Shown here piece after piece: positions 38,901-54,721 of a stretch of 64,000 bases of DNA. Position 1 is the stretch's first letter. The number at the start of each line of letters is the position of its first letter. The translations under genes and the position numbers were made by a program. The notes beneath the pieces are model-generated. The model was not told the DNA's origin and ran no database searches. It saw only the letters and a list, made by a program, of their open reading frames with translations. Origin of the DNA: Candidatus Poseidoniaceae archaeon (GTDB taxonomy: Archaea > Thermoplasmatota > Poseidoniia > Poseidoniales > Poseidoniaceae); contig CALJHE010000003.1 of NCBI GenBank assembly GCA_938075675.1, forward strand, positions 51,738 to 115,737. Reading direction: 5' to 3'.

Positions 38901-41900
38901 CCTATGCAATTGCAACCTACGTCAATGGTAGTATTCGTGCTCCTGACGGCGGTTTGTTCTCCGCTGAATACACCTATGCTGACTGGGCTGCTCAAGAGGC
39001 AGTTTACAAGTTTGAACAAAGCCAACCAGCATCAGGTCTTGAAGTCAATTTCGTTGCCAACGACCTCGCCTTTTCAACAACCGTTGAAACGGATGGAAAT
39101 TTCAGCATGCGCCTGCCAAGTGGAAACACCTTCCACATGACAACACTTAGCCTTGTTTCCCAGATGTCTTCTGGTCAACTTGTGGTTTTGAGCGGAGATG
39201 CAGAGATGGATATCGGACTCATGTACCTCGAGCCGACCGTCGCAACGATGGGTCTTGTCTACCTCTACGACAACACTTCGCTCTGGGATGGACTCGCACC
39301 AGGATATGCTGCACAAGAAGTCGTGGCAACTGATTCAACCGGACTTGAGTGGAGAACAACCATTGACGACCAAGGTGGCTTTGCATTCGACCTCCAACCA
39401 GGCGACTGGGATTTCACAGTTGATGAAGAACTGCTCAATTCGACGACTGTAACGGACTACGCAATCCTCGATAACGAAGGAATTGCTCCGAACTCTGTTG
39501 AATTGTTTGTCAGTCCGGAACCGTTGACTATTGAACTCAATATCTTCATGGACTCTGGAGGAGATGGTATCTTCGCAAACGGAACTGCTGTGACTCCAGC
39601 GTTCTCGTTGATTCCACTCAATAACCACGGACAACAGTACAACTTTACTTCGAATGACTACACTGCAGCTGGGAACATTTCCGTTGTCTTAGAGCCGGGA
39701 CTGTACAGTATCGATTTCAACGAAACCGCAGCCGACGATGAGAACGCAACGGATTACAACCTACTCGGCGATTCAACCTTTGAGACAATGATTGTTGGAA
39801 TTGAAGCATATGAAGACGCTGTTTCGTTTGCTCTACGCAATGAATACCTTGTAACCGGACAACTTTCAAACTCGTCCGGTGACGGTGTCGAAAAGCAATT
39901 CTTGCTCCGAAACGATGCTGACGACTTGTGGCACAACATCGCATCTGACGTGAATGGAAGTTTTGCCTCCTACGTCCCTGCGGGCGATTGGGTGGCTATT
40001 GTCGCACCGTTCTCTGCGTCCAATGAATCCATGGAAACCTACCGTGAGGCGTTCACAGTCAGCGAAGACTCTTCTTTGCGTACTGGATTGAACTTTACTT
40101 CCATCGAAGTGGTCACATTGAACTTCCAAGTACAGGAATTGAACACCGACTCGAACATGAGCGATGTCCGTATCACGCTTGTGAGTCATGACGGATTTGG
40201 AAACATTACGCTTTCGAAGTCGGACCAATTTGGTAATGTTAGCGAAACCATCATGCCCGGTACTTGGAGCATGTTCCTGAATCAAACAGAACCTCAGCGC
40301 CAATGGAGTCTCGACACATTCGATGCTCCTTTCTCCACTGACAACGCTGTTGATGGTGTTCTCGAACTTGGCATTGTTTCACCTGAACTCATGGTTGAAA
40401 TCGGCGGTAAAGTCTTCTGGGACCTTAACGACGACGATCTTCCTGGTGGTACAGAGGGTATTGCCAACACCACGGTAAGTATTACTGGCTTGAACAACAC
40501 TGAGATTGATACCAATGTCACAACCGATGAATTCGGTGTTTGGTCATTGCTTGTACCGATTCAAGACGAGTACCAAGTTTCAGTTTCGAAGGAAGGATTC
40601 AGTACTGAAGTCTACAATGTGTCGAATACCAGTGCTTACCCCGTCTATGCAGTCCCTGAATCATATGATATCGAGATGACAGCAGGAAACGTTACTGTTT
40701 CTGGGAACGTCACTGACATCAATGACGCTGAGCGACTGAATGGCTCGATCGTTACATTGTACCCGAGTACTGGTATGGTCGGAGAGACAATTGTTGTTGA
40801 ATCTCAATTTAATAACGATGAACTCACTTGGTCTGCAGTCATTTCACCTGGTGAATGGATTGTTGTTGTTACCGAAGCAAACCCTGGCGAAAACGGCGGT
40901 GGAGTTGCAATTGGTCTTCTTGACGCTAGCATCTCCGAAGGCGCAACTCTTGACCTCGAAATGTCACTTGGTGGTTGGCTCGACCTTTCCACCTCTTGGA
41001 CCGACATCAAACTCGATGAATATCACGCTGGTTCATCCAGTAATGGCTCGATTTACATGAACGAGACTGCAGTTGTGACCATGACCATCGGTGACGACTT
41101 GGAATGGGACTTGCCGGTTGGAGAGGATGGGACAATCAGCGTCCTCATGCCAGCATCTGAGATTGAGATGGACTCTTCTTTCACCACGATTCAGCATGAC
41201 TTGCAACTTGAGATGGAATACATCGGCGGTGCAGTAACACTCGTCGCTGAAGGTCGCTCACCAGTTTCTTTGTCGTACACACGAAGCATCAACTCTGATA
41301 CCTCGATTAGTATGGTTGAAGGAAGTGTAACTGGTGCAACCGTTGATTCTGAGCTGGCATTTACTGCGATTGAAGAAGGAGAGGGATACCAGCAGATTGA
41401 ATTCGAACTTCAGTTGAATTACGAAGGAACGGAAACTGTTCAAGTCTTCGATGTCCTTGGACAAATTCTTGTTGCTCCTGATGAAGCTGACTGGACGATT
41501 GAGTTCAAGAACGGTTCGAGCTATGAGGATTCATACGAAGTCTCCCTTGGAATCGGAAACAGTACCGACGATACAACTGTTCAGTCCTCGGCAACAGTTG
41601 GTGTCCGAATCACTGTAGCCAATCAATCATCGGCTTGGCATCTTGAAGACCCTCACACACTGAAGGTTCGTATGCTAACTGATAGCACTCCATCAAGTGA
41701 AATCTCAGTTACCGTTCAAGTGCCTCAAATCTACGGATTGGAAACTTCTGAAGAAGACGAATCCGTCGGTATTGGTGCAGGCGGAAGCAGTATGTTTGGG
41801 TTTGTACTTGAGAACACTGGCAACGGTGACGACTCTTACACCATTGAACTCTCAGATAATATCCCGGAAGGCTGGGAAGTAACTCCGATGAGTTCGGTGA

Positions 41901-42508
41901 TCACCATCGCTAAGGGCGACACACGCTCGCAGATGTTCACTGCATTCGCTCCAGATGATTTTGATTCTGGTTCAAAGGTTGTAACTGTCACCGTAACGAG
42001 TGAAAACGGCATCAATACCACTTCATTCGATGTGGAAATTGTCAAGGCCAGTATTGTACTCAAGGATGTCGACCAAGGAACAATCCAAGAAATGTCAAAC
42101 ATATACGCGAATCGAGCTGGTAAACTGATTATTCCAATCGAGAACATTGGCAAATTGGGCAGTGACGATATTGTAGTTTCTGCTAGCATACAAGGCGGTC
42201 GAACCCTAGGTGCTCAAACCGTTTCGATCGCTCCAGAGGGAATGACAAACGTCACATTCGACATGGAGGCTTCCGATGCATCTGGCCTAGTACGATTCGA
42301 TGTACGTGTTGAAATCGTTGGCGAAGACAGTGAATTTACCGACAGTGCTGTTCAAGAGTTTGATTTCAGTATCGAGTATGCGATTGATGAGTCGAATGAA
42401 GATTCCAATTCCGACTGGTTTACCTTTGTCATCGTACTTCTCGGTGCCTTGGTGCTCTACGGAGGTGTTCGCATCTCCCGACGCAGTAACAAGGGCTCAC
42501 GGTTCTGA
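32942..42508 (+). CDS. aglB: giant oligosaccharyltransferase fusion: N-terminal polytopic domain + AglB/STT3 catalytic core + ~2200-aa extracellular beta-rich extension + C-terminal TM anchor
   Basis: WWDYG motif at nt 35807-35821 (aa about 975). STT3 first-loop motif FDADRSYPIGG at about 34232. Many TM helices between aa 20-880. Long Thr/Ser/Asn-rich extracellular region follows. The final 30 aa are a TM helix plus RISRRSNKGSRF. ATG at 32942 is preferred over the non-ATG track start at 32885. Confidence 0.75.
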   Translation: MEQITGTKSTAPAAPLGWLIAPLAVLLALAAIKLVGIDFELTADNLAPMLIVGAAGILGLVPSMLDQSKSASVSKATLSLSTLAVALIGAQAIYMLDHGAFSGLLFAFVTFGVHFMSSRGRHELATIIVFIAMGVNVGMFIASDALTTLPEIYNLAAEGEQQSLVSTFNLKNQAVGYLFFSHLTVFTLVGVLVATLARGVITPVGEAGWFSFLNNDTSSKFNKNNLPLQIALTVWALAHIGSLWHFETVSIADKLGITSAADYHGIVGYWQAFFTGIVAIVVAGMYSERWHTRAMTLGSLWVLYVVSSWYDAGMFSMDLLEGNWGSLIWLGLTFFIGVGIYSISTHEKWGGWVNRDDHEYSGARKFWNQHWSSVLIGLAFFFGLVIRTQWYVVPSMNAFGTGNWDMTGGSDPWYMKRVVDYILANNAHLIFDADRSYPIGGINPRPPIFTWSVAVVATLLEPFFSNGDAVWWAILSLPAIYGALTILPVAYIAREHINEKAAVVAAWLIAFMPAHVSHTTWALADHDAFIMLFITLGFMFWLRAVKYAGSERLLRSSSPSALSFINAFTAVTQERRAALSAAVLAGVSFGIVSLGWKGFVVGPSIIFLAYAAQVALNMFRRRDSTTLNVLFLTMLAVNFLMALPFYGHPQIDLMLDGTGLQPFLFIVIFTLAISFVTTGFRDKPWLLVLGVLAGTGTIFFIVLWLLKEANLSNAWDVLFTGSGYFTKTKIFGTVAEANAPNRGQLFAQFGPITFVLSLVMGILCIWSALRDRKQTKLVFGVWILAASFMAWTAARFMFNATPAIAVLGAWGIVSLWKWANWEGMVKTWKKMGIRSPEDRIRGARKALWRTPSFSAIMLVMIMLFGQQFTYGLDAAIPSSNNAEDDIDETIYNLIPDVFRWEIGGFSLLDDSTYDGNWYLGSFGSGFNDNGWNSAYEWLAEQDQDMKYSERPAFVSWWDYGFQALDTGEHPSVSDNFQTGIPATGNMLLARSQEDLVSMFIWQLGQGDLTYNVANTGNSEFTNGYQSIVGSYLTAEQMKIFNEISTSVDTDERVSFAKLNSYEVYRTNDDTVLARGYHHTDGVFDDSTQYWRVYDEGERLLCTDSLSTTCVDGDWSSEAEAENTFSNNIRTGNDNINRVTHYIIGDYWYTADLIEEYGSVSTNLHRSNTRLALTVQLLSNSLDSGDIIDMYDDLINMEGYYTVQDYDGAPGETVDRDHEIRYYAIDNRLYPRAGRYTADMNYNQGQPMGIFGAPTILSGQDVSTYMDEVYETIRGEFPDEMTRAEVDEAITQDFLNQQSGADIDPLQVQDVRVDHNSAFFDTMLARAYVGYGASTLGVDAGSSNPQPAQHFGQSGSPGSILSQGLPLPGAMTNHFVISNWYSPEANSSVTAEEQTVGISSTNTLVKILKYYSGAEISGQVTMSDNGQPLPGVRLLIERDAFSGEGAEDLDPDTYWVPIGFTDADENGQWSFDAPAGRIRVSVYAGDFDPTVAQDNIRSGAFSQGLGDILTETNDDRTINDITAILGEVANMSWLGENQHNITAEQADSNAPVGADFDIAVESSGISGEVTWSGHESFDGDALVSTEFILRNIWSLTDNYTLTTTNGSFTSSDSRILQGSGEATFVENGTFESDGVAFADDFTGTFTRSIGDKRVYTSNGTWDGKGTLLASWIAEENVLDCLDNETAPMPENSTVCIQDSTTSPVTYLLDGAVEANGRLTSDGISTLVTEHVGDSFEATGSFEGTGTLNGTGLFIGVGSFSGEMVQPGSFYLTGLLPGVYNMIAQLDNGKEVLLPDPVNVGISPSYDLAMTMPGSIFEDTLQDFYEEKLVNEVIEWVDTDLGMDSLVEIHTDEDGNFSYGPIASGEYFYRVDIDNDGWYELNETIYARGESENFTLAMDVPEMYDISLQLTSPVDPQTQTPYADVAQRVVTFTNSDPLFGPLNATSDETGMVYIELPMGAYTISDESGDDYILFDYVELNNEDVTMSSAYAIATYVNGSIRAPDGGLFSAEYTYADWAAQEAVYKFEQSQPASGLEVNFVANDLAFSTTVETDGNFSMRLPSGNTFHMTTLSLVSQMSSGQLVVLSGDAEMDIGLMYLEPTVATMGLVYLYDNTSLWDGLAPGYAAQEVVATDSTGLEWRTTIDDQGGFAFDLQPGDWDFTVDEELLNSTTVTDYAILDNEGIAPNSVELFVSPEPLTIELNIFMDSGGDGIFANGTAVTPAFSLIPLNNHGQQYNFTSNDYTAAGNISVVLEPGLYSIDFNETAADDENATDYNLLGDSTFETMIVGIEAYEDAVSFALRNEYLVTGQLSNSSGDGVEKQFLLRNDADDLWHNIASDVNGSFASYVPAGDWVAIVAPFSASNESMETYREAFTVSEDSSLRTGLNFTSIEVVTLNFQVQELNTDSNMSDVRITLVSHDGFGNITLSKSDQFGNVSETIMPGTWSMFLNQTEPQRQWSLDTFDAPFSTDNAVDGVLELGIVSPELMVEIGGKVFWDLNDDDLPGGTEGIANTTVSITGLNNTEIDTNVTTDEFGVWSLLVPIQDEYQVSVSKEGFSTEVYNVSNTSAYPVYAVPESYDIEMTAGNVTVSGNVTDINDAERLNGSIVTLYPSTGMVGETIVVESQFNNDELTWSAVISPGEWIVVVTEANPGENGGGVAIGLLDASISEGATLDLEMSLGGWLDLSTSWTDIKLDEYHAGSSSNGSIYMNETAVVTMTIGDDLEWDLPVGEDGTISVLMPASEIEMDSSFTTIQHDLQLEMEYIGGAVTLVAEGRSPVSLSYTRSINSDTSISMVEGSVTGATVDSELAFTAIEEGEGYQQIEFELQLNYEGTETVQVFDVLGQILVAPDEADWTIEFKNGSSYEDSYEVSLGIGNSTDDTTVQSSATVGVRITVANQSSAWHLEDPHTLKVRMLTDSTPSSEISVTVQVPQIYGLETSEEDESVGIGAGGSSMFGFVLENTGNGDDSYTIELSDNIPEGWEVTPMSSVITIAKGDTRSQMFTAFAPDDFDSGSKVVTVTVTSENGINTTSFDVEIVKASIVLKDVDQGTIQEMSNIYANRAGKLIIPIENIGKLGSDDIVVSASIQGGRTLGAQTVSIAPEGMTNVTFDMEASDASGLVRFDVRVEIVGEDSEFTDSAVQEFDFSIEYAIDESNEDSNSDWFTFVIVLLGALVLYGGVRISRRSNKGSRF

Positions 42509-42565
42509 TTTCAGACAACCCATTATATCCAGAGTTCCGAGTGAACCTGCATAGGGGGGGTAGCA

Positions 42566-43798
42566 ATGGAAGGGCTTGACAATGTGGAACTGCTTCCTGA
42601 GCCTGAGGATTCACGTATACTTTCTGTTGTAGATCCCGCTGTTGTAGGATTCCAAGACCAGTGGCGGTCAGAAGTTACTGGCTGGGCTCCAATGCAGGCT
42701 GTGCCAGTACCCCGCATACGCCGGCGTAAGATGCTCGTAACCAACGGCGTCGCCTTCTCTGTTCTTGTCATTCTGCTGCTGTATGTTTGGAATTCTGGAC
42801 TGCTCTTCCTTGAGATTCCTCCTCCAAAATCGGAATGGGCTGTCGAACAGTCTCAATTTTCGGATTTATCTGATATTGGCTTGTCCGGTGAAGGCGTTCG
42901 AGTCTGTATGGTTGACACTGGAATAGATCTCAGTAATCCGGCATTTTCGAATCTGCAGGTTACATTCAAGGACATGATCGGTACTTCTACCTCACCGGTA
43001 GACTACGGGTATGTTGCCCACGGGACGTTGATGGCAGGGATTCTTGTTTCGAATGATCATCAGCTCGGTGTAGCGCCGAACGTTGACCTTGCGATGGTAG
43101 CGGCTCTTGGCTCTGATGAGGATGACATGAACAGCGGTTCTGAAGACACAGTTGCCCGCTCAATTCGCTGGTGTCAAGATGAATATCAAGCACACATCAT
43201 ATCACTCTCCTTAGGTGGGGAGCAGAATGTTGAGATGCATACCGAGGGAAGCAGTGTCTCTGCTGTCCGAAGAGCAGTTGACTCGGGAATTTTCGTCGTT
43301 GCCGCTGCAGGTAACGATGGCGGTGGAAGCGATGACGGTTTGGTATCTGTTCCCGGTAATGTCCCTCGAGTCATTACCGTAGGCGCCTCTACCGAGTCTC
43401 AGAGTGTTTGGGCAAACTCTTCATCTGGGTCACAATCCTTGGTGAACGGTGAACAGCGGCAACACCCTCACATGAAACCAGAAGTAATTGCTCCTGGCGA
43501 GAATATAATCAGCACTGGTATCGGCGACACTTGGTTTTCCAGCAGTGGGACATCAGATTCAACGGTGTTTGTCACTGGTGCGCTGTCGCTTCTACTCGAG
43601 GCGTTCCCCGAATACAAGGCGACATCAGAATCAGACGGATCATGTATAGATGCAGTGAAGAACGCACTCATGGAATCAGCTTTGAAATACGACAATACTA
43701 CAACACACGATGACCGATGGGGATACGGTCAATTACAGGCTTTGGACTGGTATTCTTACCTTGATAATCAATCACCTGTGTGTTCGTTTTCCGATTAA
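42566..43798 (+). CDS. membrane-anchored subtilisin-like serine peptidase (S8)
   Basis: Catalytic triad motifs VCMVDTGID (Asp), HGTLMAG (His), GTSDSTVFVTGALSLL (Ser). N-terminal TM helix. 57 nt downstream of the AglB fusion stop. Confidence 0.75.
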   Translation: MEGLDNVELLPEPEDSRILSVVDPAVVGFQDQWRSEVTGWAPMQAVPVPRIRRRKMLVTNGVAFSVLVILLLYVWNSGLLFLEIPPPKSEWAVEQSQFSDLSDIGLSGEGVRVCMVDTGIDLSNPAFSNLQVTFKDMIGTSTSPVDYGYVAHGTLMAGILVSNDHQLGVAPNVDLAMVAALGSDEDDMNSGSEDTVARSIRWCQDEYQAHIISLSLGGEQNVEMHTEGSSVSAVRRAVDSGIFVVAAAGNDGGGSDDGLVSVPGNVPRVITVGASTESQSVWANSSSGSQSLVNGEQRQHPHMKPEVIAPGENIISTGIGDTWFSSSGTSDSTVFVTGALSLLLEAFPEYKATSESDGSCIDAVKNALMESALKYDNTTTHDDRWGYGQLQALDWYSYLDNQSPVCSFSD

Positions 43799-43971
43799 AG
43801 GCTGTGCTAAGTTGAATTTTCTGCACACTATCTCTCGGATATTTTGATACTTTAAATCATATATGATATTTATGAACTTAAAAGTTTGATATTCTTTATC
43901 AATATTGATACTCTTAAACTGACGATTGAGGCGCAGTATTATATTCTTGGTGGCTATGGAGAGTAGCAGAG
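43799..43971. promoter_or_regulatory. AT-rich upstream region of the beta-helix surface-protein gene with three TTGATAYTYTT direct repeats
   Basis: Repeats at about 43843-43853, 43885-43897 and 43904-43915. Confidence 0.4.
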
Positions 43972-46900
43972 GTGTCTATTTTGAAGAACACAACATCACA
44001 CAAGAGCATATCGCTGGTCGCACTCCTTTTGCTTTCAACGCTAACAGGGCTTATTGCTATACCAACTGCATCTGCAGTGAATGAAACCAAGTCTGGAATC
44101 ATTACCGGAACTGAAACTTGGACAGGGACCATGAACCTTAACGGCGACGTTGTTGTTGCTGAAGGCGCTAAGCTTGTTGTCAACGCCGGGACAGTGATCA
44201 ATATCCCATACGGTTACTACATCGACGTCGAAGGTGCAATCTGTATCGGTGACAGTGCTTGTGGTGCGAGTTCTGGCTCATCAGGCAATCAAGCTCGGTT
44301 CATATGGTCGACTCCTACCGATTATACCATCCAAGGCCGATGCTACTCCAACAGCACAAGCAATCCAAACTACAACAGCGATACTGCTTGCGGATCAGGC
44401 ATGATTATTCGCTCAACGATTGACCAGGCGATTACTTCGCTGAAGTATGCACATTTTGAAAACGCATACGGTCATCCTTTCGAAACCAACCAAGTGAGTG
44501 GTATGCAATACGGTGCCTTGGTTTTCGATGGTTCTACAACCTCTGCACAGGGTCTGTCGTTTGACAACATCAATACTTCGAACGTTATGGCTATCGACCT
44601 TGCTGCGCCGAGTATCTCTGATTCCACCTTCACTCTAGGTGTCGATGGAAACGGATACGATGCAGCAGCAGTTCGTGCTTACGGTGCTGGTGCAGGTATT
44701 TTGGCTACAATGGAAGTCTCGAACTCTGTTTTTACAGGAGATACTGCTGCAGAATGTGGCAACGATGGTCGTAGCCTAATTTACGTCGAAAGTTCGTACG
44801 TAGATTTCTCTAATCTTGAAATCAAGGATAACTCCTATGGATTCTTCATGAAAGAAAGTTCGGGCTCGATTACTGACTCGGATGTTAACGTGAAGTGCAG
44901 TGGAATTGACACGAACTCTCACAAAGTCACGGGCACAATCAACCACACCCTTGTCATCAACGATAACACCATTACAACCGCAGATGGTTCTGGAATTACT
45001 GCCTATGACGGTGCGATTGTCGTTGCAGAGCGCAACATTATCTCCGGTGCAGCGTCTGGATCAGGCTTTGGTATCCGCTCCTCAACAGTTACCGCAAACA
45101 ACAACGTCATCGGCCCAATTGGTGGCTGGAACGGATTGTGGATTTACGGAACATCCGATGTTGTTGCGGAGAACAATACCATTCAGGACACAGCCAAAGA
45201 AGCTGTTCTCATTGGTGAATACCACTATCTCGACCAAGGATGGAATGTCCCAACACCAACAGCAGCCCGTCTTTACCTCGCCAACAACCAAATTTCAAAC
45301 AACACGGGTATCTGTAACTCTCAAATGTACGGTGGAGACTTCCAATGCCCTGCAATACACATGTTCATGTCTTCTGCAACCCTGTACGATAACACAGTCA
45401 CGAACAACGGTGGCGACGGAATGAGAATCAAAGCGAGCATCGTCAATGCTCAACGAAACACCATTGAAGTCTCTGGGTTTGCAGCCAACATTTCACTGTT
45501 CGATGATAACTACGGTAACAAGTACGGCTCAATTGCTTACTTCTCTGAGAACACATACACGAATGCGACACAGGTCTACAACATTACCGAATCCCGTGTT
45601 ACTGTACAGTCTGAATTCATCCCAGATGCGGGCGGTAACGAAATATATCCTGTGCAAATGAGTTGGCTTGGCCCTGAATGTCCATATGTTCTCGATGAGT
45701 GTTTGCAAGTTCCTCCAACTTCAATCATGCCTCCAGCCTTCATGCCTTTGGCTCTGGAAGTTGTCGAAAACTCCACAGTGTTCTCGTACGCAAACCTTCA
45801 GAACTTCGATTCCTCCAAGATTCACGTTCAGAACCAAAACTCCGCCTGGGGTAGCCAAGTTCGTGAAGGGGAACTTGTTCGATACCAAGTCAAGGCACAA
45901 AACAGCAACGTCGTTGACGCAACTGTAATCATCCGAGATGCTTCTGGATTGCCGCTTTACACACTCACCACAGATGCGTTTGGTTTCACGCCAGAAGTTT
46001 CACTCCCATCCGACTTCCTCCTCGACCGTAACTGGAATCACAATGTTGGAGAAACAAATGTCCAGATTCCCGGAGTCCTCGATTCCGAAGGCAATCCAGT
46101 CTTCATTGACGAAAATTCCTGCGCCGATGGATACGATAATGACGGAGATACCAAGGTCGACTCCGAGGATGGAGATTGTACAGGTGGCCGAGAGTTACCT
46201 TTCTACACCGTAGAAGCGTACAAATTTGGAAAGGGTCAGAAGGATTTCAATTTCGTTCTGAGTGGAGCCATCGACGATGTCATTAACCTCGTGAACTTGA
46301 AACCAAGCGTCACTGTGACTCAAAACGATGGATATTCATTCGCTACGACTGCCACTCTAACTGGAGGCGCATGGGATGGAATTTCGGGACCATATGCGCT
46401 CGACCAAATCGCATATGACAGCCAATTCGGTGTCGTTAAGCGTGTGGAGATTCAACCCCCTGGCTCTACCGATTGGTACAACGCCGTGGACACCTCGGGT
46501 GCGAACGGAATGGTTACGAAGTCGACGCATCCGTTCAAAACATGGTCGTTTGAATGGGATTTGTCAGCACATCCAGAGGGTGAGGGAGACGTCACCTTCC
46601 GCGTCCGTTCATATGACGGGTTGGACTACTCGCCTGTAGAAGTACGAAAGTACAAACTGAATCTCGTGGCTCCGACAACTCTTGTGAATTCGCCGGCTGA
46701 TGGTTCATCGCATACCAACGGCAAAGTGACATTCACCGGTACTTCCAGTGATCCGTATTCGGGTACATGGGGCAGCGATATCAAATCCATTTGGTTCGAC
46801 ATCAATGGTCCAAACGGTTACACTGCAAACTTCGATGTATCGGGTTCGACTGCATGGGCATACGACTGGATTTTCCAAGAATTGCAAACAGGGCAGTATG

Positions 46901-48369
46901 ATTTCCGCATCTGGGCATCTGACAGTGATTTCTGCAACACGAAATCCAGCTGGGCTGATTGTGAACACGAAACTCGAACCATCAACATCAATACCGATAA
47001 CGCAATTCCTTTCGTTCAACTTAGTGAACCACTGAACTCTGACATTCTTCGAGCCAGTGACACTCAACTTATCCAGGGTGTCGCATTGGATAACGATGGG
47101 CTGGTGACTCGTGTCGAGATTTCAATCTTTGACCTAGCAAGCGGTACCACTGTAAACAACGGTCCGAATCCTGTGACAAACTTTGCTCCGAACGGTGCAT
47201 GGTACACAACTTGGGACACATCCGACCTTATCCATGACCAACAATATGAACTGGTCATCAAAGCATGGGACGGAAAGGACTTTTCGAATGAGGAGCGAAT
47301 CCGTATCACAATCGACAATCCAAGTGACGCAAACAATCTCGTTCCTGAATTCAACTCAACGGGTTGGTCGAGTACCATCACTCTGTTCTGTGACTCAAAC
47401 CCGACCAAACTCGACCGTTGCAACGGTGGAATCAGCGTCGACTTGATGGATTACTTTTCGGATCCTGATGGTGTCGAAGATGGTAAAACCGATGGGTTGA
47501 ACTTCGACATCTTTGACGATCCGACCAACTTGGATGATGATTTCTACGGTGATTACCTTACACTTTCCGATAAGGGAGTTGTCAGTTATAACCCCGCATT
47601 CGTCACTGGTCTCTCCAACGATGTTTCCGAATGGTCTCTCGTAGGGCTTATGTTTGTTGCTCGTGACGCATACGATTCAGTTGCCTACTCCTACAAGGTC
47701 AACGTCGTAGTCGTCGAAGTCTCATTCAGTGTCGTTCGTGACAACTCTGGACCTCTTGGGCCTGACTCTCCTGCATATTTCAGCGGCCAAGGTTTGCCGA
47801 ACAGTCTGGTTGAGGCTCGTTTCGACAGTCTCAAGGGCGTTCGTATTAACCAAACCCGCGTCAATGCAGATGCAACATGGACAATGGAAATTTCAAGCAG
47901 TCAACTTTCGGGCATGGAAGGGACAAGCAACATTATCTTCGAGATGGATGACCAAGTCTATTCAGTCCCTGGCGAGAACACAAACGCTCTCTTCCAACTC
48001 AGTGTTGGTGATGGTTCGGAATCCAATTCGAACGTTTGGATGATTGTCGGTGCTGTATTCGGAATCATTGTACTGTTAGGTGCTGGTATGTTCTTCTTCC
48101 AAGTCGAGTATGATGACATGGATGAACTTACTGAAATGGCACAAGCTGAACAAGAGGCTGCAACAGCAGACCCTTACGCATGGGCTAAGGCTCGACAAGA
48201 GCCAGTGGGCATTCCTGCTGCCGCCGTTGCAACGACTCCGGTCGCTGCTCAAACTGTGGCTGCTGCTGTTCAACCTGCAGCCCCACAGGCATCTCAACAT
48301 CCAGGATGGATTTGGGACTCGGAGTCCAACAACTGGGTTCCTGATCCAAACTACACTCCCGACCAGTGA
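43972..48369 (+). CDS. secreted right-handed beta-helix (PbH1-repeat) surface protein, tail-anchored
   Basis: Signal peptide. Parallel beta-helix repeats (NNTIQDTAKEAVLIGE, NNQISNNTGIC, DNTVTNNGGDGMRI; about 44700-45450). Downstream Ig-like regions. TM helix VWMIVGAVFGIIVLLGAGMFFF. About 100-aa Ala/Pro-rich cytoplasmic tail. Confidence 0.6.
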   Translation: MSILKNTTSHKSISLVALLLLSTLTGLIAIPTASAVNETKSGIITGTETWTGTMNLNGDVVVAEGAKLVVNAGTVINIPYGYYIDVEGAICIGDSACGASSGSSGNQARFIWSTPTDYTIQGRCYSNSTSNPNYNSDTACGSGMIIRSTIDQAITSLKYAHFENAYGHPFETNQVSGMQYGALVFDGSTTSAQGLSFDNINTSNVMAIDLAAPSISDSTFTLGVDGNGYDAAAVRAYGAGAGILATMEVSNSVFTGDTAAECGNDGRSLIYVESSYVDFSNLEIKDNSYGFFMKESSGSITDSDVNVKCSGIDTNSHKVTGTINHTLVINDNTITTADGSGITAYDGAIVVAERNIISGAASGSGFGIRSSTVTANNNVIGPIGGWNGLWIYGTSDVVAENNTIQDTAKEAVLIGEYHYLDQGWNVPTPTAARLYLANNQISNNTGICNSQMYGGDFQCPAIHMFMSSATLYDNTVTNNGGDGMRIKASIVNAQRNTIEVSGFAANISLFDDNYGNKYGSIAYFSENTYTNATQVYNITESRVTVQSEFIPDAGGNEIYPVQMSWLGPECPYVLDECLQVPPTSIMPPAFMPLALEVVENSTVFSYANLQNFDSSKIHVQNQNSAWGSQVREGELVRYQVKAQNSNVVDATVIIRDASGLPLYTLTTDAFGFTPEVSLPSDFLLDRNWNHNVGETNVQIPGVLDSEGNPVFIDENSCADGYDNDGDTKVDSEDGDCTGGRELPFYTVEAYKFGKGQKDFNFVLSGAIDDVINLVNLKPSVTVTQNDGYSFATTATLTGGAWDGISGPYALDQIAYDSQFGVVKRVEIQPPGSTDWYNAVDTSGANGMVTKSTHPFKTWSFEWDLSAHPEGEGDVTFRVRSYDGLDYSPVEVRKYKLNLVAPTTLVNSPADGSSHTNGKVTFTGTSSDPYSGTWGSDIKSIWFDINGPNGYTANFDVSGSTAWAYDWIFQELQTGQYDFRIWASDSDFCNTKSSWADCEHETRTININTDNAIPFVQLSEPLNSDILRASDTQLIQGVALDNDGLVTRVEISIFDLASGTTVNNGPNPVTNFAPNGAWYTTWDTSDLIHDQQYELVIKAWDGKDFSNEERIRITIDNPSDANNLVPEFNSTGWSSTITLFCDSNPTKLDRCNGGISVDLMDYFSDPDGVEDGKTDGLNFDIFDDPTNLDDDFYGDYLTLSDKGVVSYNPAFVTGLSNDVSEWSLVGLMFVARDAYDSVAYSYKVNVVVVEVSFSVVRDNSGPLGPDSPAYFSGQGLPNSLVEARFDSLKGVRINQTRVNADATWTMEISSSQLSGMEGTSNIIFEMDDQVYSVPGENTNALFQLSVGDGSESNSNVWMIVGAVFGIIVLLGAGMFFFQVEYDDMDELTEMAQAEQEAATADPYAWAKARQEPVGIPAAAVATTPVAAQTVAAAVQPAAPQASQHPGWIWDSESNNWVPDPNYTPDQ

Positions 48370-48428: not shown

Positions 48429-50954
48429 ATGTCTGTTCAACCAAAGCCAGGTGTGCAAGAAAGAATACTTCTGCACCTTCTTGATTATTCAGATTTTAAG
48501 AACAGTGTCGAAGTTCCTTTTGCTCTCTCCCAAATGGGGATTGCTAACGCAGTAGCGATTGCTCGATCGAACGTGCCTCGGGCAATTGCTGGACTCAAAG
48601 ACCAAGGTTTGCTTATCGAACGCCAAGCACACGTCACCGGCGTTTCTCGTAAGCGTAAAGCGTACTTTCTCACAGACCCAGGCATGAATGTCTCAGAAGA
48701 CACCTGGGAAAGGCTTCGTCATTTCCAACTTCGCAGTATAATGGACGATGGAGCGATTATCAATTCCACTCTTGGGGAAATCAACGACCATCTGGAATTT
48801 TCTATGCGGCCGGTGGACATTATTCGTTACATGGATGACAACTGCGTTTTGGATACTCGGATTCTCTCAGCAGACTTGGTGGAGCGTGACTTATCCAAAC
48901 ATGTGGAAAAGCAGTTGGTGACCGCGCTTGGAGATTTACCTCGATTACGGCACTTTTACGGTAGGGAAAAAGAACTCGACAATATGGCGAATTTGATTGA
49001 CGCCCGAGCTACAACACTGCTTATCCCGGGTATTGCAGGTATTGGAAAAACGACAATCGCTTCCAAGTTGATTGAGCGGTTTATGCATCGCCGGAATCTG
49101 TTGTATCACAGATGCCAGGATTGGGAAGGTTCTCGCTCGTTCTTCGAGTCGATTGCGGATTGGTTGGCTAACATAGGTGACTCAACCTTTGCAGATTACC
49201 TTGCTGCCACACCGGTACCACAACCTGCTGACGCTGCACGTCTCTTGGTTGACTCACTCGAGGGGACTCCAAGCTTGATTGTCATCGATGATTTCCACAA
49301 AGTTGCAGACACAACCCTCCACCAGACTTTCCAAGCCATGTCATTGGCTCTGCTTGGTAGTGAAGAGGAAATTGGTCTCGTGATATTCTCCCGTTCGTTC
49401 AAGCCCGTTGTCCCAACGAAGGATGCTGAAGGGCGTATTGCGAGTTTGGTTTTACCTCTCGATGGTCTTGATTCAGATGCTGGCCGTCAATTACTCACGA
49501 GTTTTGATAACCTGGGTGATGAGCAATGGCTTCACATTCACGGCTTATCGCGTGGCCATCCACTCGTTCTTGAGTTGATTAATCGGGGCGCTTCTGCAGG
49601 CGCTTTCCACGAAACCTTGGAAAATTACGTCACCGTGGAAATCTTCTCAAAGTTGAGCGCAGAGCAGAAACGAGTTTTGTCTGCTCTGGCAATTTATCGA
49701 GAACCAGTGATTCTGTCTGCACTTGCAGAACAAGGACTTGACACCGACGAACTTGATTCTCTTGTTGAACAAGGATTAGCCCGTCAGGGTGATGTTGATT
49801 TTTACGATGTTCACGATTTAATACGAGAGTTCTTGGTTCGTAGTCTCGATGAAAGTACTAAACAAGAATTCCATGCGAAGTGCTGCAACTGGTATGAAAA
49901 GCAGACTTCTGCACCTGCAATTTTGATTGAGCACATTTACCACCTCATCCGTTCCGGAAAGGGAGAAGAGGCGGCGGTTCTCATTGCAGAGCAAGGCCGT
50001 AATTTGATTGCGCAAGGTCACATGGAACTTCTTGGTTTGATGGAAGGCTTGACTATGGAAGACCTTGATAATCCTATACGCATGCGTGTACGTCAATTAC
50101 ACGGTGAATTGTTGGTTCTTCTTGGGCGGTTTTCAGAAGCAGAGACCGTTTTTGTATCCATCTCTCAACTGGACCCTCAATCGAAAGCGGTTCGGTTGAA
50201 TGCTGAAGTTCACTCCGCTCTCGCTGATCTTGCGCTCAAGCAGGGTGATGCAGACAAAGCACTTGCCATGCACCGGGAAGCATTGGAGAAGTTCATTGAA
50301 TGTGGAGATGCAAAAGGAGCAGCCCGATCATACAGCAACATGGGATACCTACTGCGCCGTAAAAATGATGTCTCGAAGGCTCTTGAAGCGTATGGGGAAG
50401 TTGAGAAAATCCTCAGTGAATCAGATGGAGTCGAACTGATCGGAACCCAACTGACCCTTGCTCGTGCTTTCCTTGAATTGAATGAGATTGACCGAGCACG
50501 AGACCATGCGCTCCAAGCCTTTGAAGTTTCAGACGATGGAAGTGATGTACTGCTTCATGCACGTGCACAAGCCGTACTTGGTCGATACTACGCAAAGGTT
50601 GGTGATGCAGATGTTGCTTCACACCACTACACTACGGCCCTGGAGACGATGAGCGTTGCAGGAGATTTGCTTTCACTGGTGGAAATTACTATTCTTCTTG
50701 GAGAAGTCCTACAAGATGCAGGGCGAGCAGAAGATGCGATGGAGCACTATCGTGAGGCCCTTGTTATTGCCGAGGCTAACGATCTGCGTATGCAAATTGG
50801 AGAACTACTTTCCCGTCTTGGTGGTGTTGCCCCTGATAAGCGTCGAAGAATGGAATATTTGCAAAGAGCCCTTGCGGTATTCCGCGAACTTGGTGCAAAG
50901 TCAAGGATGCGTGATGTCCAAGCCCAAGTCCATGCAGCAGTCATGGGTCGCTGA
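48429..50954 (+). CDS. STAND NTPase regulator: N-terminal winged HTH + NB-ARC-type ATPase + C-terminal TPR repeats
   Basis: wHTH (ERILLHLLDY...VPRAIAGLKDQGLL). Walker A GIAGIGKTT at about 49027-49055. Walker B LIVIDDFH. GHPLVLEL (GxP) motif. At least 8 TPR-like repeats. ATG at 48429 avoids overlap with the upstream gene. Confidence 0.6.
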   Translation: MSVQPKPGVQERILLHLLDYSDFKNSVEVPFALSQMGIANAVAIARSNVPRAIAGLKDQGLLIERQAHVTGVSRKRKAYFLTDPGMNVSEDTWERLRHFQLRSIMDDGAIINSTLGEINDHLEFSMRPVDIIRYMDDNCVLDTRILSADLVERDLSKHVEKQLVTALGDLPRLRHFYGREKELDNMANLIDARATTLLIPGIAGIGKTTIASKLIERFMHRRNLLYHRCQDWEGSRSFFESIADWLANIGDSTFADYLAATPVPQPADAARLLVDSLEGTPSLIVIDDFHKVADTTLHQTFQAMSLALLGSEEEIGLVIFSRSFKPVVPTKDAEGRIASLVLPLDGLDSDAGRQLLTSFDNLGDEQWLHIHGLSRGHPLVLELINRGASAGAFHETLENYVTVEIFSKLSAEQKRVLSALAIYREPVILSALAEQGLDTDELDSLVEQGLARQGDVDFYDVHDLIREFLVRSLDESTKQEFHAKCCNWYEKQTSAPAILIEHIYHLIRSGKGEEAAVLIAEQGRNLIAQGHMELLGLMEGLTMEDLDNPIRMRVRQLHGELLVLLGRFSEAETVFVSISQLDPQSKAVRLNAEVHSALADLALKQGDADKALAMHREALEKFIECGDAKGAARSYSNMGYLLRRKNDVSKALEAYGEVEKILSESDGVELIGTQLTLARAFLELNEIDRARDHALQAFEVSDDGSDVLLHARAQAVLGRYYAKVGDADVASHHYTTALETMSVAGDLLSLVEITILLGEVLQDAGRAEDAMEHYREALVIAEANDLRMQIGELLSRLGGVAPDKRRRMEYLQRALAVFRELGAKSRMRDVQAQVHAAVMGR

Positions 50955-50955
50955 A

Positions 50956-51432
50956 TTATTCGTACGATTGCGGTCGGTCGTACTGCAATGATGTGACGCC
51001 GTCTGAGTGAACAACCCAAACCGAAGTTACTCCCGCCAATACGATGGTTCCTTCGTGGGATCCCGCACCTGTTCCTGATAGGGACACACTGGTGTCAAGT
51101 GTCCCTCCGTCGTGAATCAGTTCAATCGAGGTGTCGGTGAGTTGCAAAGTAATTCTTGCTTCATCCGCCTCGGTTAATCTCCATGTTACCTTTTCGGCGT
51201 ACTCGACTGCACCCATGCGGCTTGCTTCGTCAGCCCGTTCGACTGCCGCTGCCAAATCATCAAGATTTGATTGAATTGCATTTTCGTTCCACCGTTCTCG
51301 GGTTGCAGTTTCTATTTGGTATGCCCAAATACTGAATGTTGTAAGCAACAGCACTCCGAGTAGGAACGTGAATATGTAGCCAAGTTCAGTTGCTGCAGCA
51401 TGCTCATCTCTGCGAAGTTGATTTCTGTTCAT
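50956..51432 (-). CDS. small protein with archaeal class-III (pilin-like) N-terminus
   Basis: ATG at 51432 overlaps the stop of the upstream gene (ATGA). N-terminus MNRNQLRRDEHAAATELGYIFTFLLGVLLL. Confidence 0.45.
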   Translation of the reverse strand: MNRNQLRRDEHAAATELGYIFTFLLGVLLLTTFSIWAYQIETATRERWNENAIQSNLDDLAAAVERADEASRMGAVEYAEKVTWRLTEADEARITLQLTDTSIELIHDGGTLDTSVSLSGTGAGSHEGTIVLAGVTSVWVVHSDGVTSLQYDRPQSYE

Positions 51433-53639
51433 GAGACCGCCTCCGTCATATGAGCATTGAGTGCCGCCATTTGAAGCGTAAATTGTATTGGTTCTCCATT
51501 GGTGTGCCAAACGGCTTCTGATGTGCCATACGAGGGGTCGGGAACCCATCCGACATAATCGGTGAGTAAGTCGATACGTCCTGGATAAATGGTCCAGTCT
51601 TCACTTGCTTCAAGACCGTCTGCAGATGATTCTGCAATGGCTACTCCGTACGGTTTCGACCAACCCCTTCTGACCTCGTAGGCTGTGGCTGAGGCCAAAG
51701 ATGAACGGTCAACAAGTTCAATGTCGAGATTCATTTTTCCTGCACCACTTACGCTGTCTGCAGTCGGGTGAAGCGATGGAATCGTAGCGGCAAATCGTGG
51801 CCCAGGTCCTCCACGGTCCGACGGTGAAACGACAATGTAGGGTTCAAATTCCGGATGGTTCGTGACTACAGCACCACCTGCATAGGCCACTTCCATCCCA
51901 ACGATTGAGGATTGGAACTCATAACTTAGTCTGGAAAGGTGGAAACCCCATACTGTCCCGAGTGTGGCATGACTTGATGCTCCGTTTTCGCCAATCAGAC
52001 TAATCTGCATACTTGCAGGGTGTGTTCCAGCCCTCCATGCATTCTGAAGGTCAACTTGGCTTCTTCCGCTCATTGATTGCCAAGGGAGTGCAGAACTGAT
52101 CCATCCACTTGCTTGAACATTAATCGGTAAGCAACGTTGGGCACCATCATGCATAGCTTGGAGTAAACCTTCTTGGCCTCGAATAGAATATACGCGCAAT
52201 GAATCCCCGTCGCTCACATTGATTTGGGTTATGCCTTGTTCGAGTTCAACCGTTTTGTGATTCACATTCTCGAGGAATGTGCCGTTTGCAACGGTGCTAC
52301 CGGTCATGTTCCATTCTGTGTAGTATCCAGCATGGGTCATGTGGAGTCTATGAACTCCTGATTGACTGTTGTGGAATGTGTGTAATTGTCCAGAAAGTGC
52401 TCCGGTATCATCTGCTGGTTCGACTTGCAGTCCTGAGCCGCTTGAATTCTTTCTCCATGTGACGAAGATGTCGCCGTTTGCATCTAGCATTGGCGCTCCA
52501 TCGATATCGGCAGGAGGCCATGGGAAGGATGTACTTTGGTTTGCTGCAACTGAGAGCCCACCGCCTCTCCACGTGACTGTCACGCTGTCAGTGCTGGGGT
52601 TGGAGAACACGAGTTCTCCCTCGAGTGAAGGGCTGATGAAGGAGTGGCCGAGATATTGACCATCGGTACTGGGTAACGCCATCTGGCCAGTCGTCGAGTT
52701 CGTGTTGGTTTGCAGAATCAGTCTTGATGGTGAACTGGTCGAGATGTGGACCACTTCTGGCGAGGATGTGCTCAATTGGTGATTGAAGTCAACTCCTACT
52801 CGGTTTTGGTTGGATGGTAAGGCATAGAATGTGTTCGTAGTATCGTTTTGAATCGTAATTTGGTTTGCTGTTTCACTGAGAATCTGGATTTGATTCTCAC
52901 CGGCAGGTAGAGGAATCGACCATGAGCTTCCTGTCGAATCGACAGGGTTTGGGTCGTTGGATTGCATCACTGTCGTCCCTCCACTGCCGACCGAGAGAAG
53001 TAGGTGCAATTGGTGAGAGGAGTGAATGGTTGTTTCACCAAGTTCACTCATGTCCAGAACACGCATGCCATCGACCATCAATTTCAGTTCCGACAATGTT
53101 TCGCTGCCATCCATGACTTCCACATCGATCGGTCCGAGCGGAAGGGCAAGCCCTGGAGATGCTGTAAGAAGGACCTCATCGACCCACTCGGGGATTGTGA
53201 ACATGTACGGGTTCGCAGGACCGAGTCTCAAGTCATCGATACAAACTGCTGTATTCATCGATTCAGGGTGACGTATTCGTAGTTCATCGTCGTAGTCAAG
53301 TGCGCCTTGGACACGGAACGAGGTGTCGTCGGCCCAAGTCGCCGAATACCACATACTGCTCTGCATCATGTTCCAGTTGAGCGTTCCGTCAACCGGTATC
53401 AGGCTAATCTCTGTAGAGTCGCCAGGCATTCCTGTTTCACTCAATGCAGCAGTTTGGTGTGCCAGCAGAGTCATTTGAGCCGACATGTCGTGACGTTCTA
53501 TCGAGCCTTCGAGCTCTTCGATAACAGGTATCATGGATACCATCATCATGGCGATAATCGACAGTACGCCACCGAACAGGAGTACCGTTGCGACGGCTGC
53601 TGACACCGCACTTTCATCTCGCTGGAGCATGGATTTCAT
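51429..53639 (-). CDS. large (736 aa) protein with archaeal class-III (pilin-like) N-terminus
   Basis: N-terminus MKSMLQRDESAVSAAVATVLLFGGVLSII. Start overlaps the upstream stop in ATGA. Remainder is an extracellular beta-rich domain. Confidence 0.5.
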   Translation of the reverse strand: MKSMLQRDESAVSAAVATVLLFGGVLSIIAMMMVSMIPVIEELEGSIERHDMSAQMTLLAHQTAALSETGMPGDSTEISLIPVDGTLNWNMMQSSMWYSATWADDTSFRVQGALDYDDELRIRHPESMNTAVCIDDLRLGPANPYMFTIPEWVDEVLLTASPGLALPLGPIDVEVMDGSETLSELKLMVDGMRVLDMSELGETTIHSSHQLHLLLSVGSGGTTVMQSNDPNPVDSTGSSWSIPLPAGENQIQILSETANQITIQNDTTNTFYALPSNQNRVGVDFNHQLSTSSPEVVHISTSSPSRLILQTNTNSTTGQMALPSTDGQYLGHSFISPSLEGELVFSNPSTDSVTVTWRGGGLSVAANQSTSFPWPPADIDGAPMLDANGDIFVTWRKNSSGSGLQVEPADDTGALSGQLHTFHNSQSGVHRLHMTHAGYYTEWNMTGSTVANGTFLENVNHKTVELEQGITQINVSDGDSLRVYSIRGQEGLLQAMHDGAQRCLPINVQASGWISSALPWQSMSGRSQVDLQNAWRAGTHPASMQISLIGENGASSHATLGTVWGFHLSRLSYEFQSSIVGMEVAYAGGAVVTNHPEFEPYIVVSPSDRGGPGPRFAATIPSLHPTADSVSGAGKMNLDIELVDRSSLASATAYEVRRGWSKPYGVAIAESSADGLEASEDWTIYPGRIDLLTDYVGWVPDPSYGTSEAVWHTNGEPIQFTLQMAALNAHMTEAVS

Positions 53640-54721
53640 CGTGAAACCTCCACACGCTTAACATCGACTTCGAGAATAAGTTGATTTTCTTGCGATTCGA
53701 CAGTGAATCCATCGGCACCACTTGCTCGAAGATACGGTGCGTATCCAGTAAATGTGTCCAGTGTTCCGGACGCCCTGTTCAGCGTATGTTCTTCCAGCAT
53801 CTTGTCGTGGTATTGCGGTGTGATGACATCATTAAGCGCATTTTCAACAGTGAATTGGAGGTGGTATGCATTGCCAGTAAACAGCGTCATAGGACCAAGC
53901 GAAACCATGTTCATGCCGATTTTTTCCCCTGAGCCTATTGAGCCGTTAATGATGACATCTGTGAGAACAATCGACAAACGCAACTCACCAGTAACCAGCG
54001 TGTCGAGTTCGATGTTGGGGAATTGGGATACCTTCCAAGGTTCATTCGGGAATCTTTCAGCTCGAGCGTCATTCACCAAAGCAATTTCATGTTCCCCTAG
54101 TCCGAGTGAGGTTGAAATTTGAATGCCGGATACGATGTACGAAACGCTCGTGTGCAGAGCACGTTCGTCAGCGTCGAACACAGTGACAGTCATCCAGTGG
54201 TCTTGAGAGGACTGATGTTCGATCACAACTTCATTGAATGAACCACTGAATGCATGGGATTCGATACCCAGTGGGCTTTCGATTGATACGCTTCGAGCAG
54301 TTTCATTGATGGCTGTAATGCCAATTGCTGAGTTGTTGATGTTACGAACAGTAATTCGCTCATCTGGAGTTAAATCTGCAGCAATCGTCCAAGTTTCAAC
54401 TTTGATGACCGGTTGAACCATTGTCGACTTGAGTGCCAATGTATGTCGGATGCCTGTGCCTTCTGGTGCGCTTCCAGCCACATCGATTCTGTCTTCAAAA
54501 CGGTCAGCAATTCCGTTCGCACTGTTCCAGTTTGTGTTGTCTTCGAAATCAGAAATGTAGGGGCTGAGGAAAATCCACACCCCTCCCATGATTGTGACGA
54601 CCATAGCCAGCATCATCACGACCCCGAGAACCTCGCTGACAGCCCTTTGGTCTCGGCGAAGAGACGGGCGAAGTACAGAGGGGTGGTGTGCGTTCACAGA
54701 CAGCACAACCTTTGGTATCAT
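53636..54721 (-). CDS. protein with archaeal type IV pilin-like N-terminal domain (DUF1628-like)
   Basis: N-terminus ...LRRDQRAVSEVLGVVMMLAMVVTIMGGVW closely matches the archaeal pilin consensus (RAVSEVIGVILMVAITVIL). 361 aa. Confidence 0.55.
   Translation of the reverse strand: MIPKVVLSVNAHHPSVLRPSLRRDQRAVSEVLGVVMMLAMVVTIMGGVWIFLSPYISDFEDNTNWNSANGIADRFEDRIDVAGSAPEGTGIRHTLALKSTMVQPVIKVETWTIAADLTPDERITVRNINNSAIGITAINETARSVSIESPLGIESHAFSGSFNEVVIEHQSSQDHWMTVTVFDADERALHTSVSYIVSGIQISTSLGLGEHEIALVNDARAERFPNEPWKVSQFPNIELDTLVTGELRLSIVLTDVIINGSIGSGEKIGMNMVSLGPMTLFTGNAYHLQFTVENALNDVITPQYHDKMLEEHTLNRASGTLDTFTGYAPYLRASGADGFTVESQENQLILEVDVKRVEVSR

Follow-up and report, generated by a model that had tools for sequence, protein, structure and literature searches.

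We analyzed a 64,000-nucleotide (nt) window of a contig from a Candidatus Poseidoniaceae archaeon, to which all coordinates refer (plus strand unless stated otherwise). Its subject here is a block of five genes that follow one another on the plus strand: purD (31493-32767), an AglB/STT3 oligosaccharyltransferase fusion (hereafter AglB; 32942-42508), a subtilisin-family serine protease (S8; 42566-43798), a beta-helix surface protein (BH; 43972-48369), and a STAND regulator (48429-50954). The fusion, assigned from its Pfam STT3 match and its transmembrane (TM) map, is 3,188 amino acids long. S8, a predicted type II membrane protein, has 410 amino acids; BH, a type I membrane protein, has 1465; and the STAND protein, which combines a winged helix-turn-helix (wHTH) with NOD and TPR domains, has 841. 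A preliminary description of this DNA had proposed that AglB, S8, and BH form a dedicated module for the maturation of a surface glycoprotein. We find that the neighborhood is real, conserved, and ancient, and that at least two transcription units, rather than one glycoprotein-maturation operon, describe it best.

The S8 gene starts exactly 57 nt past the AglB stop at 42508, as had been described, and the spacer between the two occupies 42509-42565. The spacer between S8 and BH (43799-43971) measures 173 nt, is 68% AT, and holds the BH regulatory region, while the STAND start lies 59 nt past the BH stop. Two of the starts used here are not those of the longest open reading frame (ORF). The longest AglB ORF opens with a GTG at 32885, and the ATG at 32942 is most likely the true start. 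The longest STAND ORF opens with a GTG at 48366 and has a 4-nt overlap with the BH stop; the start was placed at the ATG at 48429 because of the lengths of the orthologs (838-850 amino acids) and their alignment.

Conservation of the block

We compared gene order across 92 Poseidoniales loci. Of these, L001-L088 belong to Poseidoniaceae and comprise 8 metagenome loci found through S8 homologs and 80 species-representative genomes, and L089-L092 come from more distant S8 clusters; the S8 of L089 carries the source name Thalassarchaeaceae (MGIIb). The genomes closest to the window are those of Candidatus Poseidoniaceae or Poseidonia (Marine Group IIa). The complete order purD-AglB-S8-BH-STAND is intact in every sufficiently long locus, with S8 identities reaching as low as about 41%. 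All of the 88 Poseidoniaceae loci that are long enough keep AglB-S8-BH, and so do L089-L092, in which identity to the window is 42-47% for S8, 35-40% for BH, and 37-43% for the AglB core. The conserved AglB-S8-BH order that the preliminary description had put forward as a check is thus confirmed, with no loss of synteny. Within Poseidoniaceae the whole ±10 kb is collinear, and in L090 and L091 a breakpoint falls just after STAND and leaves the five-gene block untouched. However, the purine biosynthesis gene purD, which has nothing to do with the envelope, is linked as stably as the other genes of the block. Both this linkage and the collinearity of the flanks weaken the case for a functional link, and because purD is equally conserved, adjacency is weak evidence of function.

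Outside the order, no homologs of AglB, BH, or STAND were detected within 10 kb of the seven closest S8 relatives, which come from metagenomes. A Pfam scan of one such locus returned unrelated neighbors, and the neighbors of these nearest relatives include DUF7151, Pro_dh, and D-aminoacyl-tRNA deacylase. A literature search returned no description of this cluster, of the promoter array upstream of BH, or of the N-terminal segment of S8, both of which are described below. The nearest S8 relatives (L093-L098, L104, and L166), at 35-42% identity and ~350 amino acids, carry a lipobox-like L[ST]GC signal. Their S8 genes overlap or abut an upstream gene of ~390 amino acids that has no family match, and giant surface proteins are encoded nearby (DUF7151, 2,386-2,417 amino acids; CARDB/FG-GAP).

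The encoded proteins

Pfam Peptidase_S8 (PF00082) matches the protease over residues 108-388 and scores 124.9 bits (cut-off 21.8; E 5e-36). Its catalytic domain, residues 92-400 (42839-43765), contains the triad that the preliminary description had reported as intact: D117 (42914-42916), H152 (43019-43021), and S330 (43553-43555), together with the oxyanion residue N250 (43313-43315), are invariant in 76 orthologs and align to the catalytic residues of subtilisin BPN'. Both the profile score and the Asp-His-Ser order with its oxyanion Asn place the protein among the subtilases. The AlphaFold2 model (pLDDT 80.5) superposes on BPN' with a TM-score of 0.89 at 30% identity (Foldseek), and PDB sequence matches, best for Tk-SP and the intracellular subtilisins (ISPs), include Tk-SP and BPN' at about 1e-21 and the ISP 7xr8 at 9e-21. 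The sole hydrophobic helix, residues 56-83 (42731-42814; hydropathy 2.33), coincides with a helix in the model at residues 57-76. It is flanked by an RIRRRK cluster on its N-terminal side and by an acidic stretch on its C-terminal side, so the helix is predicted to be a signal anchor with the N-terminus inside and the protease outside, in agreement with the topology proposed earlier. Residue 92, ~8 residues after the helix, aligns to residue 7 of mature BPN'. The mature domain thus directly follows the TM helix, and S8 has no I9 propeptide; Pfam likewise returned no match in S8 to this domain, which marks classical secreted subtilisins.

The cytoplasmic segment that precedes the helix (residues 1-55; 42566-42730) carries a conserved motif, LPEPxDxRIL..D..G..W..VTGWxP. 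Only D23 is strictly invariant across both families, P11, E12, P13, and G28 are at least 90% conserved, and the first 20 residues match the catalytic domain in conservation. AlphaFold2 places a beta-hairpin at residues 8-22 with low to moderate confidence and leaves residues 27-54 disordered. In a library-wide HMMER search the segment was restricted to a small S8 clade (P0121-P0129) with 41-54% identity; the next-closest relatives, at 33-39% identity, are ~350 amino acids long, carry a lipobox-type signal, and lack it. No second copy of the motif, as might mark a shared sorting signal, was found elsewhere in the window. Two identifications of the segment were considered and rejected. A Tat signal is at odds with the alignment, in which only R52 is invariant and the twin arginine is not conserved. 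An inhibitor peptide of the ISP type, suggested by the resemblance of LLPEP to LIPY, is incompatible with the hydrophobic helix that separates the segment from the catalytic domain.

Comparison with known subtilases shows how this protein combines familiar parts. It shares the fold, the D-H-S triad, and the oxyanion Asn with the true subtilisins (MEROPS S8A; BPN' and Tk-SP of Thermococcus kodakarensis), but differs from them in lacking the I9 propeptide and in carrying an N-terminal signal anchor, preceded by its 55-residue cytoplasmic segment, in place of a cleaved signal peptide. The mycosins (MycP, TIGR03921) are S8 proteases that are likewise tethered to the membrane, lack a classical removable propeptide, and belong to a conserved envelope cluster; a mycosin model is the best NCBIfam match of S8 (E 2.9e-34). 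Membership in that family was nevertheless rejected, given a score of 118.7 bits against a cut-off of 278.75 and the N-terminal position of the anchor. In mycosins the anchor is a C-terminal helix, whereas the protease described here is archaeal, is anchored through residues 56-83, and has AglB, BH, and STAND rather than ESX genes as its neighbors. The ISPs, which match at similar PDB E-values, also do without an I9 prodomain, and their N-terminus bears a short conserved extension. Their extension, with its LIPY motif, folds over the active site; the segment of S8, in contrast, lies beyond the TM helix and is predicted to be on the opposite side of the membrane.

AglB scores 55 bits against the STT3 profile (PF02516; cut-off 24.5), and its translation contains the WWDYG motif, as FVSWWDYG; profile and motif together identify it as an STT3 oligosaccharyltransferase. 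It consists of a multi-TM STT3 core, an ectodomain of ~2,000 amino acids built from beta-sandwich repeats (CarboxypepD_reg repeats in Pfam), and a C-terminal TM helix, so that the fusion is anchored at both ends. Orthologs measure 3146-3212 amino acids. In L007 and L008, both long-read assemblies, the AglB ORF is split in a frameshift-like manner. Of the 49 N-x-S/T sequons in the window's AglB, 46 lie inside the ectodomain, between residues 1404 and 3122. Across 64 orthologs, the C-terminal ectodomain holds 48 sequons where 22 are expected (z 4.4-8.9), and the enrichment exceeds 2-fold in every one of them.

The preliminary description had expected many sequons in BH as the dedicated substrate of the transferase, and this expectation is contradicted. 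For BH in the window, composition predicts 19 sequons but 14 are present, and 2 of the 14 fall in the signal peptide or the cytoplasmic tail. Its ectodomain holds 11.6 against 16.4 expected, with a negative z in 71 of 71 orthologs; enrichment, as expected of a dedicated N-glycoprotein substrate, is absent. In the S8 ectodomain the count matches expectation (2.0 against 2.1; z about 0 in 72 orthologs). These counts suggest that the fusion carries its own heavily glycosylated surface domain, as predicted from the sequons. If any protein of the block is a preferred N-glycoprotein, the candidate would be the transferase's own sequon-rich ectodomain and not BH, which corrects the earlier expectation about glycosylation. 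Archaeal AglB proteins such as that of Haloferax volcanii, whose substrates include the S-layer glycoprotein, belong to the same STT3 family, share the WWDYG motif, and act on extracellular N-x-S/T sites. What differs here is that the transferase is fused to a sequon-rich ectodomain of its own and has a sequon-poor neighbor in BH. In characterized archaea, AglB serves as a general enzyme and is not known to have a protease as a partner.

BH is built, in order, of a signal peptide ending in ASA|V, a pectin-lyase-fold beta-helix, an acidic Cys-rich repeat, Ig-like domains, a TM helix, and a tail. A Pfam Beta_helix match (52 bits against 25.9) and a confident right-handed beta-helix at about residues 36-535 of the AlphaFold2 model together identify a right-handed parallel beta-helix (PbH1/pectin-lyase fold), and we delimit this domain at about residues 36-546 (44077-45609). 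The acidic double-disulfide, Ca-binding-like motif DENSCADGYDNDGDTxxDxxDxDC (residues 710-738; 46099-46185) is invariant across the order. It matches NCBIfam acid_disulf_rpt at E 1.7e-5, under the family cut-off, and a teneurin Ca-binding region at E 0.004 in a profile search of the PDB. A bacterial Ig-like Big_7 domain (residues 901-978; 46672-46905; Pfam 26.9 against 24.1 bits) is present in 16 of 16 orthologs scanned. The structural neighbors of BH are mostly glycan-active enzymes and adhesins, at 10-16% identity; among beta-helix proteins, this applies to GH87, PL6, the AlgE/AlgG epimerases, NosD, and autotransporter passengers. A single-sequence search of the PDB returned no homologs, and a profile search returned only the teneurin-like Ca-binding motif. 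Read by eye, without a formal alignment, BH shows neither a DPH(D/E) epimerase motif nor the GH28 motif order. A word-indexed search for the BH family yielded 242 clusters, in which all proteins measure about 1,410-1,520 amino acids and all source-named matches are marine Euryarchaeota or Poseidoniales. BH ORFs are shortened to 230-788 amino acids in L002, L008, L044, and L070, by assembly frameshift or as real variation; L002 and L003 share an identical S8 (P0008), yet of the two only L003 has an intact BH.

Beyond its beta-helix, BH differs from other pectin-lyase-fold proteins in its C-terminal TM anchor and conserved cytoplasmic tail. The signal peptide and beta-helix noted in the preliminary description are confirmed, but BH is not strictly a tail-anchored protein: the TM helix at about residues 1355-1377 (48034-48102; hydropathy 2.57) is followed by a cytoplasmic tail of 88 residues (48103-48366), as in a type I membrane protein. 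Two conserved linear motifs flank a variable A/Q/P-rich linker in this tail, DPYAW(A/G)K from 48169 and HPGW(L/I)WDxxxNxWVPDPNY from about 48298 to the extreme C-terminus. P1444, G1445, W1446, W1448, D1449, and W1455 are invariant in 16 of 16 aligned orthologs, including those of L089-L092. Each motif is unique within the window, and neither matches a known family in Pfam or NCBIfam. The conservation of both motifs implies a cytoplasmic partner.

The STAND protein, a probable partner and regulator of BH, is the best-conserved product of the block, with 68-98% identity within the family, and its gene always adjoins BH. Pfam detects AAA_16 (39.8 against 32.6) and TPR_12 (75.4 against 30.1); TPR_MalT is borderline (44.9 against 45), HTH_Crp_2 falls below threshold (21.2 against 27), and NCBIfam gives a partial MalT match. 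The NOD matches PH0952 of Pyrococcus horikoshii (PDB 6mfv) at E 1.3e-25. With a NOD ATPase, a TPR sensor, and a DNA-binding effector domain, the protein has the same wHTH-NOD-TPR architecture as the PH0952/MalT-type STANDs, although its HTH is N-terminal, as in PH0952, and not of the C-terminal LuxR type found in MalT. Upstream of its promoters, MalT recognizes short, asymmetric direct repeats, and the array described below resembles these. PH0952 itself is predicted to be a transcription factor and has an N-terminal DNA-binding domain, a NOD, and TPRs (PMC6468293).

Spacers and transcription signals

The spacer between AglB and S8 is short, with a median of 56 nt (range 18-130), and a run of five T residues (T5) occurs in 3 of 72 loci. 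T5 runs are the usual archaeal termination signal. Since the spacer is short and almost free of oligo-T, read-through into S8 is plausible. At the same time, 42 of the 72 loci carry a TATA-like box, GACAAnnnATTAWAW, mostly 39-58 nt before the ATG (in the window, ATTATAT at 42522-42528). The geometry of this upstream box resembles that of the BH promoter, and among the 32 genes of the window only S8 and BH have such a heptamer at most 50 nt from their start. The co-transcription of AglB and S8 asserted in the preliminary description therefore stands as plausible, with an additional promoter for S8 in many lineages. The spacer also contains a G-rich Shine-Dalgarno-like run and a short variable hairpin. 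In most lineages this hairpin, of 5-9 bp, lies between the TATA-like box and the S8 start (window 42530-42550; L009-L088), and its sequence varies between genera while the stem is kept, as in L013 (AGAGTTC/GAACTCT), L015 (AAAGTTAC/GTAACTTT), and L032 (ACCCC/GGGGT). Fold-energy z-scores for the spacer are weak (mean -1.1), yet the hairpins recur. One Poseidoniaceae clade (L066-L068 and L083-L087) has an S8 box of the form GACAAG..TTGATAC, with a single copy of the TGATAC word that recurs upstream of BH.

The S8-BH spacer is organized differently. Its median length is 188 nt (range 91-222), and T5 runs occur in 55 of 85 loci, so that transcription probably ends after S8. A core promoter-like element, GAGGCGCAGTATTATATTC, lies at 43928-43946 on the plus strand; it resembles a B recognition element (BRE) and TATA box, includes ATTATAT at 43938-43944, and stands 34 nt before the BH start. 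The core CAGTRTTATA recurs in 83 of 85 S8-BH spacers, 37-47 nt before the BH start codon, and has 3 plus-strand matches elsewhere in the 1.66 Mb of loci. Upstream of it, four direct repeats of TGATAY span 43845-43911 on the plus strand (starts at 43845, 43864, 43887, and 43906; spacing 19, 23, and 19 nt). Each S8-BH spacer holds 2-5 copies, on average 3.1 where 0.11 would be expected. Repeats are set 19 nt (110 cases) or 23 nt (43 cases) apart, and 28-29 nt separate the last one from the core promoter. Phased pairs number 157 in S8-BH spacers and 1 genuine case elsewhere in the same 1.66 Mb on both strands. At the distant loci the repeats vary, with three TGATAT copies in L089 and the form CGATAC(T) in L092, which is GC-rich.

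Upstream of other genes, essentially no copies of the core promoter or the array were found, whether across the window, where the array is the only cluster of its kind, or, for the 88 Poseidoniaceae loci, within their 10-kb flanks. Because both elements are essentially confined to BH, no regulon is visible. Neither spacer has an Rfam match at E <= 1. The BH-STAND spacer, with a median of 22 nt, has a TATA-like box in none of 69 loci, and BH and STAND are probably co-transcribed. Given its own promoter, the T-runs upstream, and its adjacency to STAND, BH looks separately regulated. We take the TGATAY repeats as candidate activator-binding sites, and the STAND protein as the obvious candidate to bind them. 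Separate promoters with uncorrelated expression had been named in the preliminary description as an outcome that would count against its module. For S8 and BH, the core element and the T5 runs argue against co-transcription, while AglB and S8 may share a transcript.

Proposed roles and alternative explanations

We favor a reading in which AglB is a general transferase, S8 a tethered ectoprotease, and BH an inducible surface protein with its own STAND regulator, and we give this reading about an even chance (roughly 0.5) of being correct. One unit would comprise AglB, with S8 read through from it and, in many lineages, also served by its own promoter-like box. The N-glycosylation carried out by AglB would be a general service to the cell. 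S8 would act as a propeptide-less, true-subtilisin-like ectoprotease tethered to the outer face of the membrane, with its short conserved peptide in the cytoplasm. Its most likely job would be the cleavage of cell-surface proteins, and its targets could be exogenous protein, as in peptide scavenging, or proteins of the surface coat. S8 enzymes of Marine Group II (MGII) have been treated as extracellular and peptide-degrading, with 1-4 copies per metagenome-assembled genome (PMC6864105), and a subtilase and an oligosaccharyltransferase are among the highly transcribed MGII genes (PMC9723583). The other unit would comprise BH and STAND, expressed from their own BRE/TATA-like promoter. The beta-helix of BH suggests a protein that binds or cleaves glycans or serves in adhesion. 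The layout of the TGATAY repeats upstream of the core is as would be expected for an archaeal activator site, and binding of these repeats by STAND would give an inducible, autoregulated display of BH.

Several observations weigh against this reading. A purely nutritional role would leave unexplained both the conserved cytoplasmic segment of S8 and the confinement of its subclade to a place beside AglB and BH. Four surface-related genes on one strand remain adjacent down to ~37-45% identity, which hints at functional coupling. BH is only 10-16% identical to all of its structural neighbors and may be an enzyme or an adhesin. Among the four loci from distant clusters, L090 and L091 have a degenerate TGATAY array, and about 40% of lineages lack the TATA-like box upstream of S8. 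Moreover, the promoters, the read-through, and the link between STAND and its putative operator are all deduced from sequence conservation.

Four other explanations were weighed, each of which we rank below the favored one; they are processing of the AglB polyprotein, the dedicated module, a sensor circuit, and mere contiguity. S8 might cut the AglB fusion itself, releasing a sequon-rich, C-terminally anchored coat glycoprotein from the transferase core. The ectodomain, enriched in sequons in all 64 orthologs and provided with its own TM anchor, would fit such a fate. S8 is predicted to face the same compartment, AglB and S8 are adjacent throughout the order, and the short spacer between them is nearly free of terminator-like runs. 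However, a conserved cleavage motif did not emerge, the AglB ORFs that are split in L007 and L008 look like long-read frameshifts, the TATA-like box suggests independent expression of S8, and the case is inferential from end to end; we consider it unlikely. The dedicated module of the preliminary description, in which BH would receive N-glycans from AglB and be proteolytically processed by S8 at the outer membrane face, retains the synteny and the possible AglB-S8 transcript. The AglB-S8-BH order is kept in every locus examined in both families, the active or ecto parts of all three products are predicted to be extracellular, S8 is tethered beside its putative substrates, and the S8 subclade that bears the N-segment occurs in no other context. 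A precedent exists in Clostridioides difficile, where Cwp84, the surface-layer maturation protease, is encoded near its substrate SlpA. Yet the same synteny includes purD and so does not discriminate, BH is depleted in sequons, and BH forms a probable unit with STAND, with a regulated promoter of its own and T-runs that separate it from S8. The fold of S8 is that of broad-specificity true subtilisins, and the closest S8 relatives from outside the order have no detected AglB, BH, or STAND homolog within 10 kb. Taken together, the evidence supports the module only in part, and we hold it to be improbable as formulated.

More elaborate is a signaling circuit in which BH would be a surface sensor of a glycan or of a particle surface, with S8 and STAND as its partners. 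The C-terminal peptide of BH (HPGWxWD...WVPDPNY-COOH) would dock onto the TPR domain of STAND, keeping it at the membrane in the manner of MalK and MalT, or onto the N-segment of S8, and ligand binding or a site-1-type cleavage by S8 would release STAND, which could then switch on the TGATAY promoter. C-terminal peptides are common ligands of TPR domains. Of the two conserved motifs in the BH tail, the C-terminal one is invariant throughout the order, no gene of the block is better conserved than STAND, which always lies next to BH, and the conserved cytoplasmic segment of S8 is limited to this context. MalT-type STANDs are known to be kept inactive by partners such as MalK and MalY (PMC6468293; PMC10427625). 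If true, such a circuit would be a new archaeal device connecting surface to gene, an analog of MalK-MalT sequestration or of site-1 proteolysis by a subtilase. Against it, the tail motifs match no known family, and simpler models account for the promoter and the gene order, which leads us to regard the circuit as doubtful at best. At the other extreme, the block may owe its persistence to history, as a segment that is rarely rearranged and has no functional link beyond that between BH and STAND. The equally stable linkage of purD and the collinearity of all flanks within the family fit this explanation. The breakpoint in L090 and L091, however, falls right after STAND and none falls inside the block, and its genes, all coding for envelope proteins, lie on one strand with short spacers between them; we hold contiguity alone to be quite unlikely.

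Among planktonic archaea of the surface ocean, Poseidoniales are the most abundant, and all of them are uncultured. The presence of the block in both families makes it a defined entry point to the cell envelope of this order, and it offers a promoter whose conservation is sharp, which comes with an operator-like array of repeats and for which a candidate regulator is obvious. S8 represents a propeptide-less, N-terminally anchored variant of subtilisin with a conserved cytoplasmic peptide, and BH is a universal beta-helix protein that shares its fold with glycan-cleaving enzymes. Few carbohydrate-active enzymes have been recognized in MGII (PMC6864105).

The surroundings of the block also contain genes for surface proteins. 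Two DUF7289 archaeal pilin-like genes and a small ORF follow STAND on the minus strand (50956-54721). These three genes are present after STAND in Poseidoniaceae, L089, and L092 and absent in L090 and L091, where an MBL-fold gene and a gene for a protein of ~1,910 amino acids come directly after STAND. Large secreted or anchored proteins are unusually frequent in the window, with ORFs at 16670-21562 (minus strand), 55821-61574 (plus strand), 28935-30722 (minus strand), and 23167-24966 (minus strand). Among the large surface proteins of the window are a protein of 1630 amino acids with six lamin-tail domains and a PLD-type domain, one of 1917 amino acids with a TSP3 repeat, a CARDB protein, and a TSP3/CBM5-like protein.

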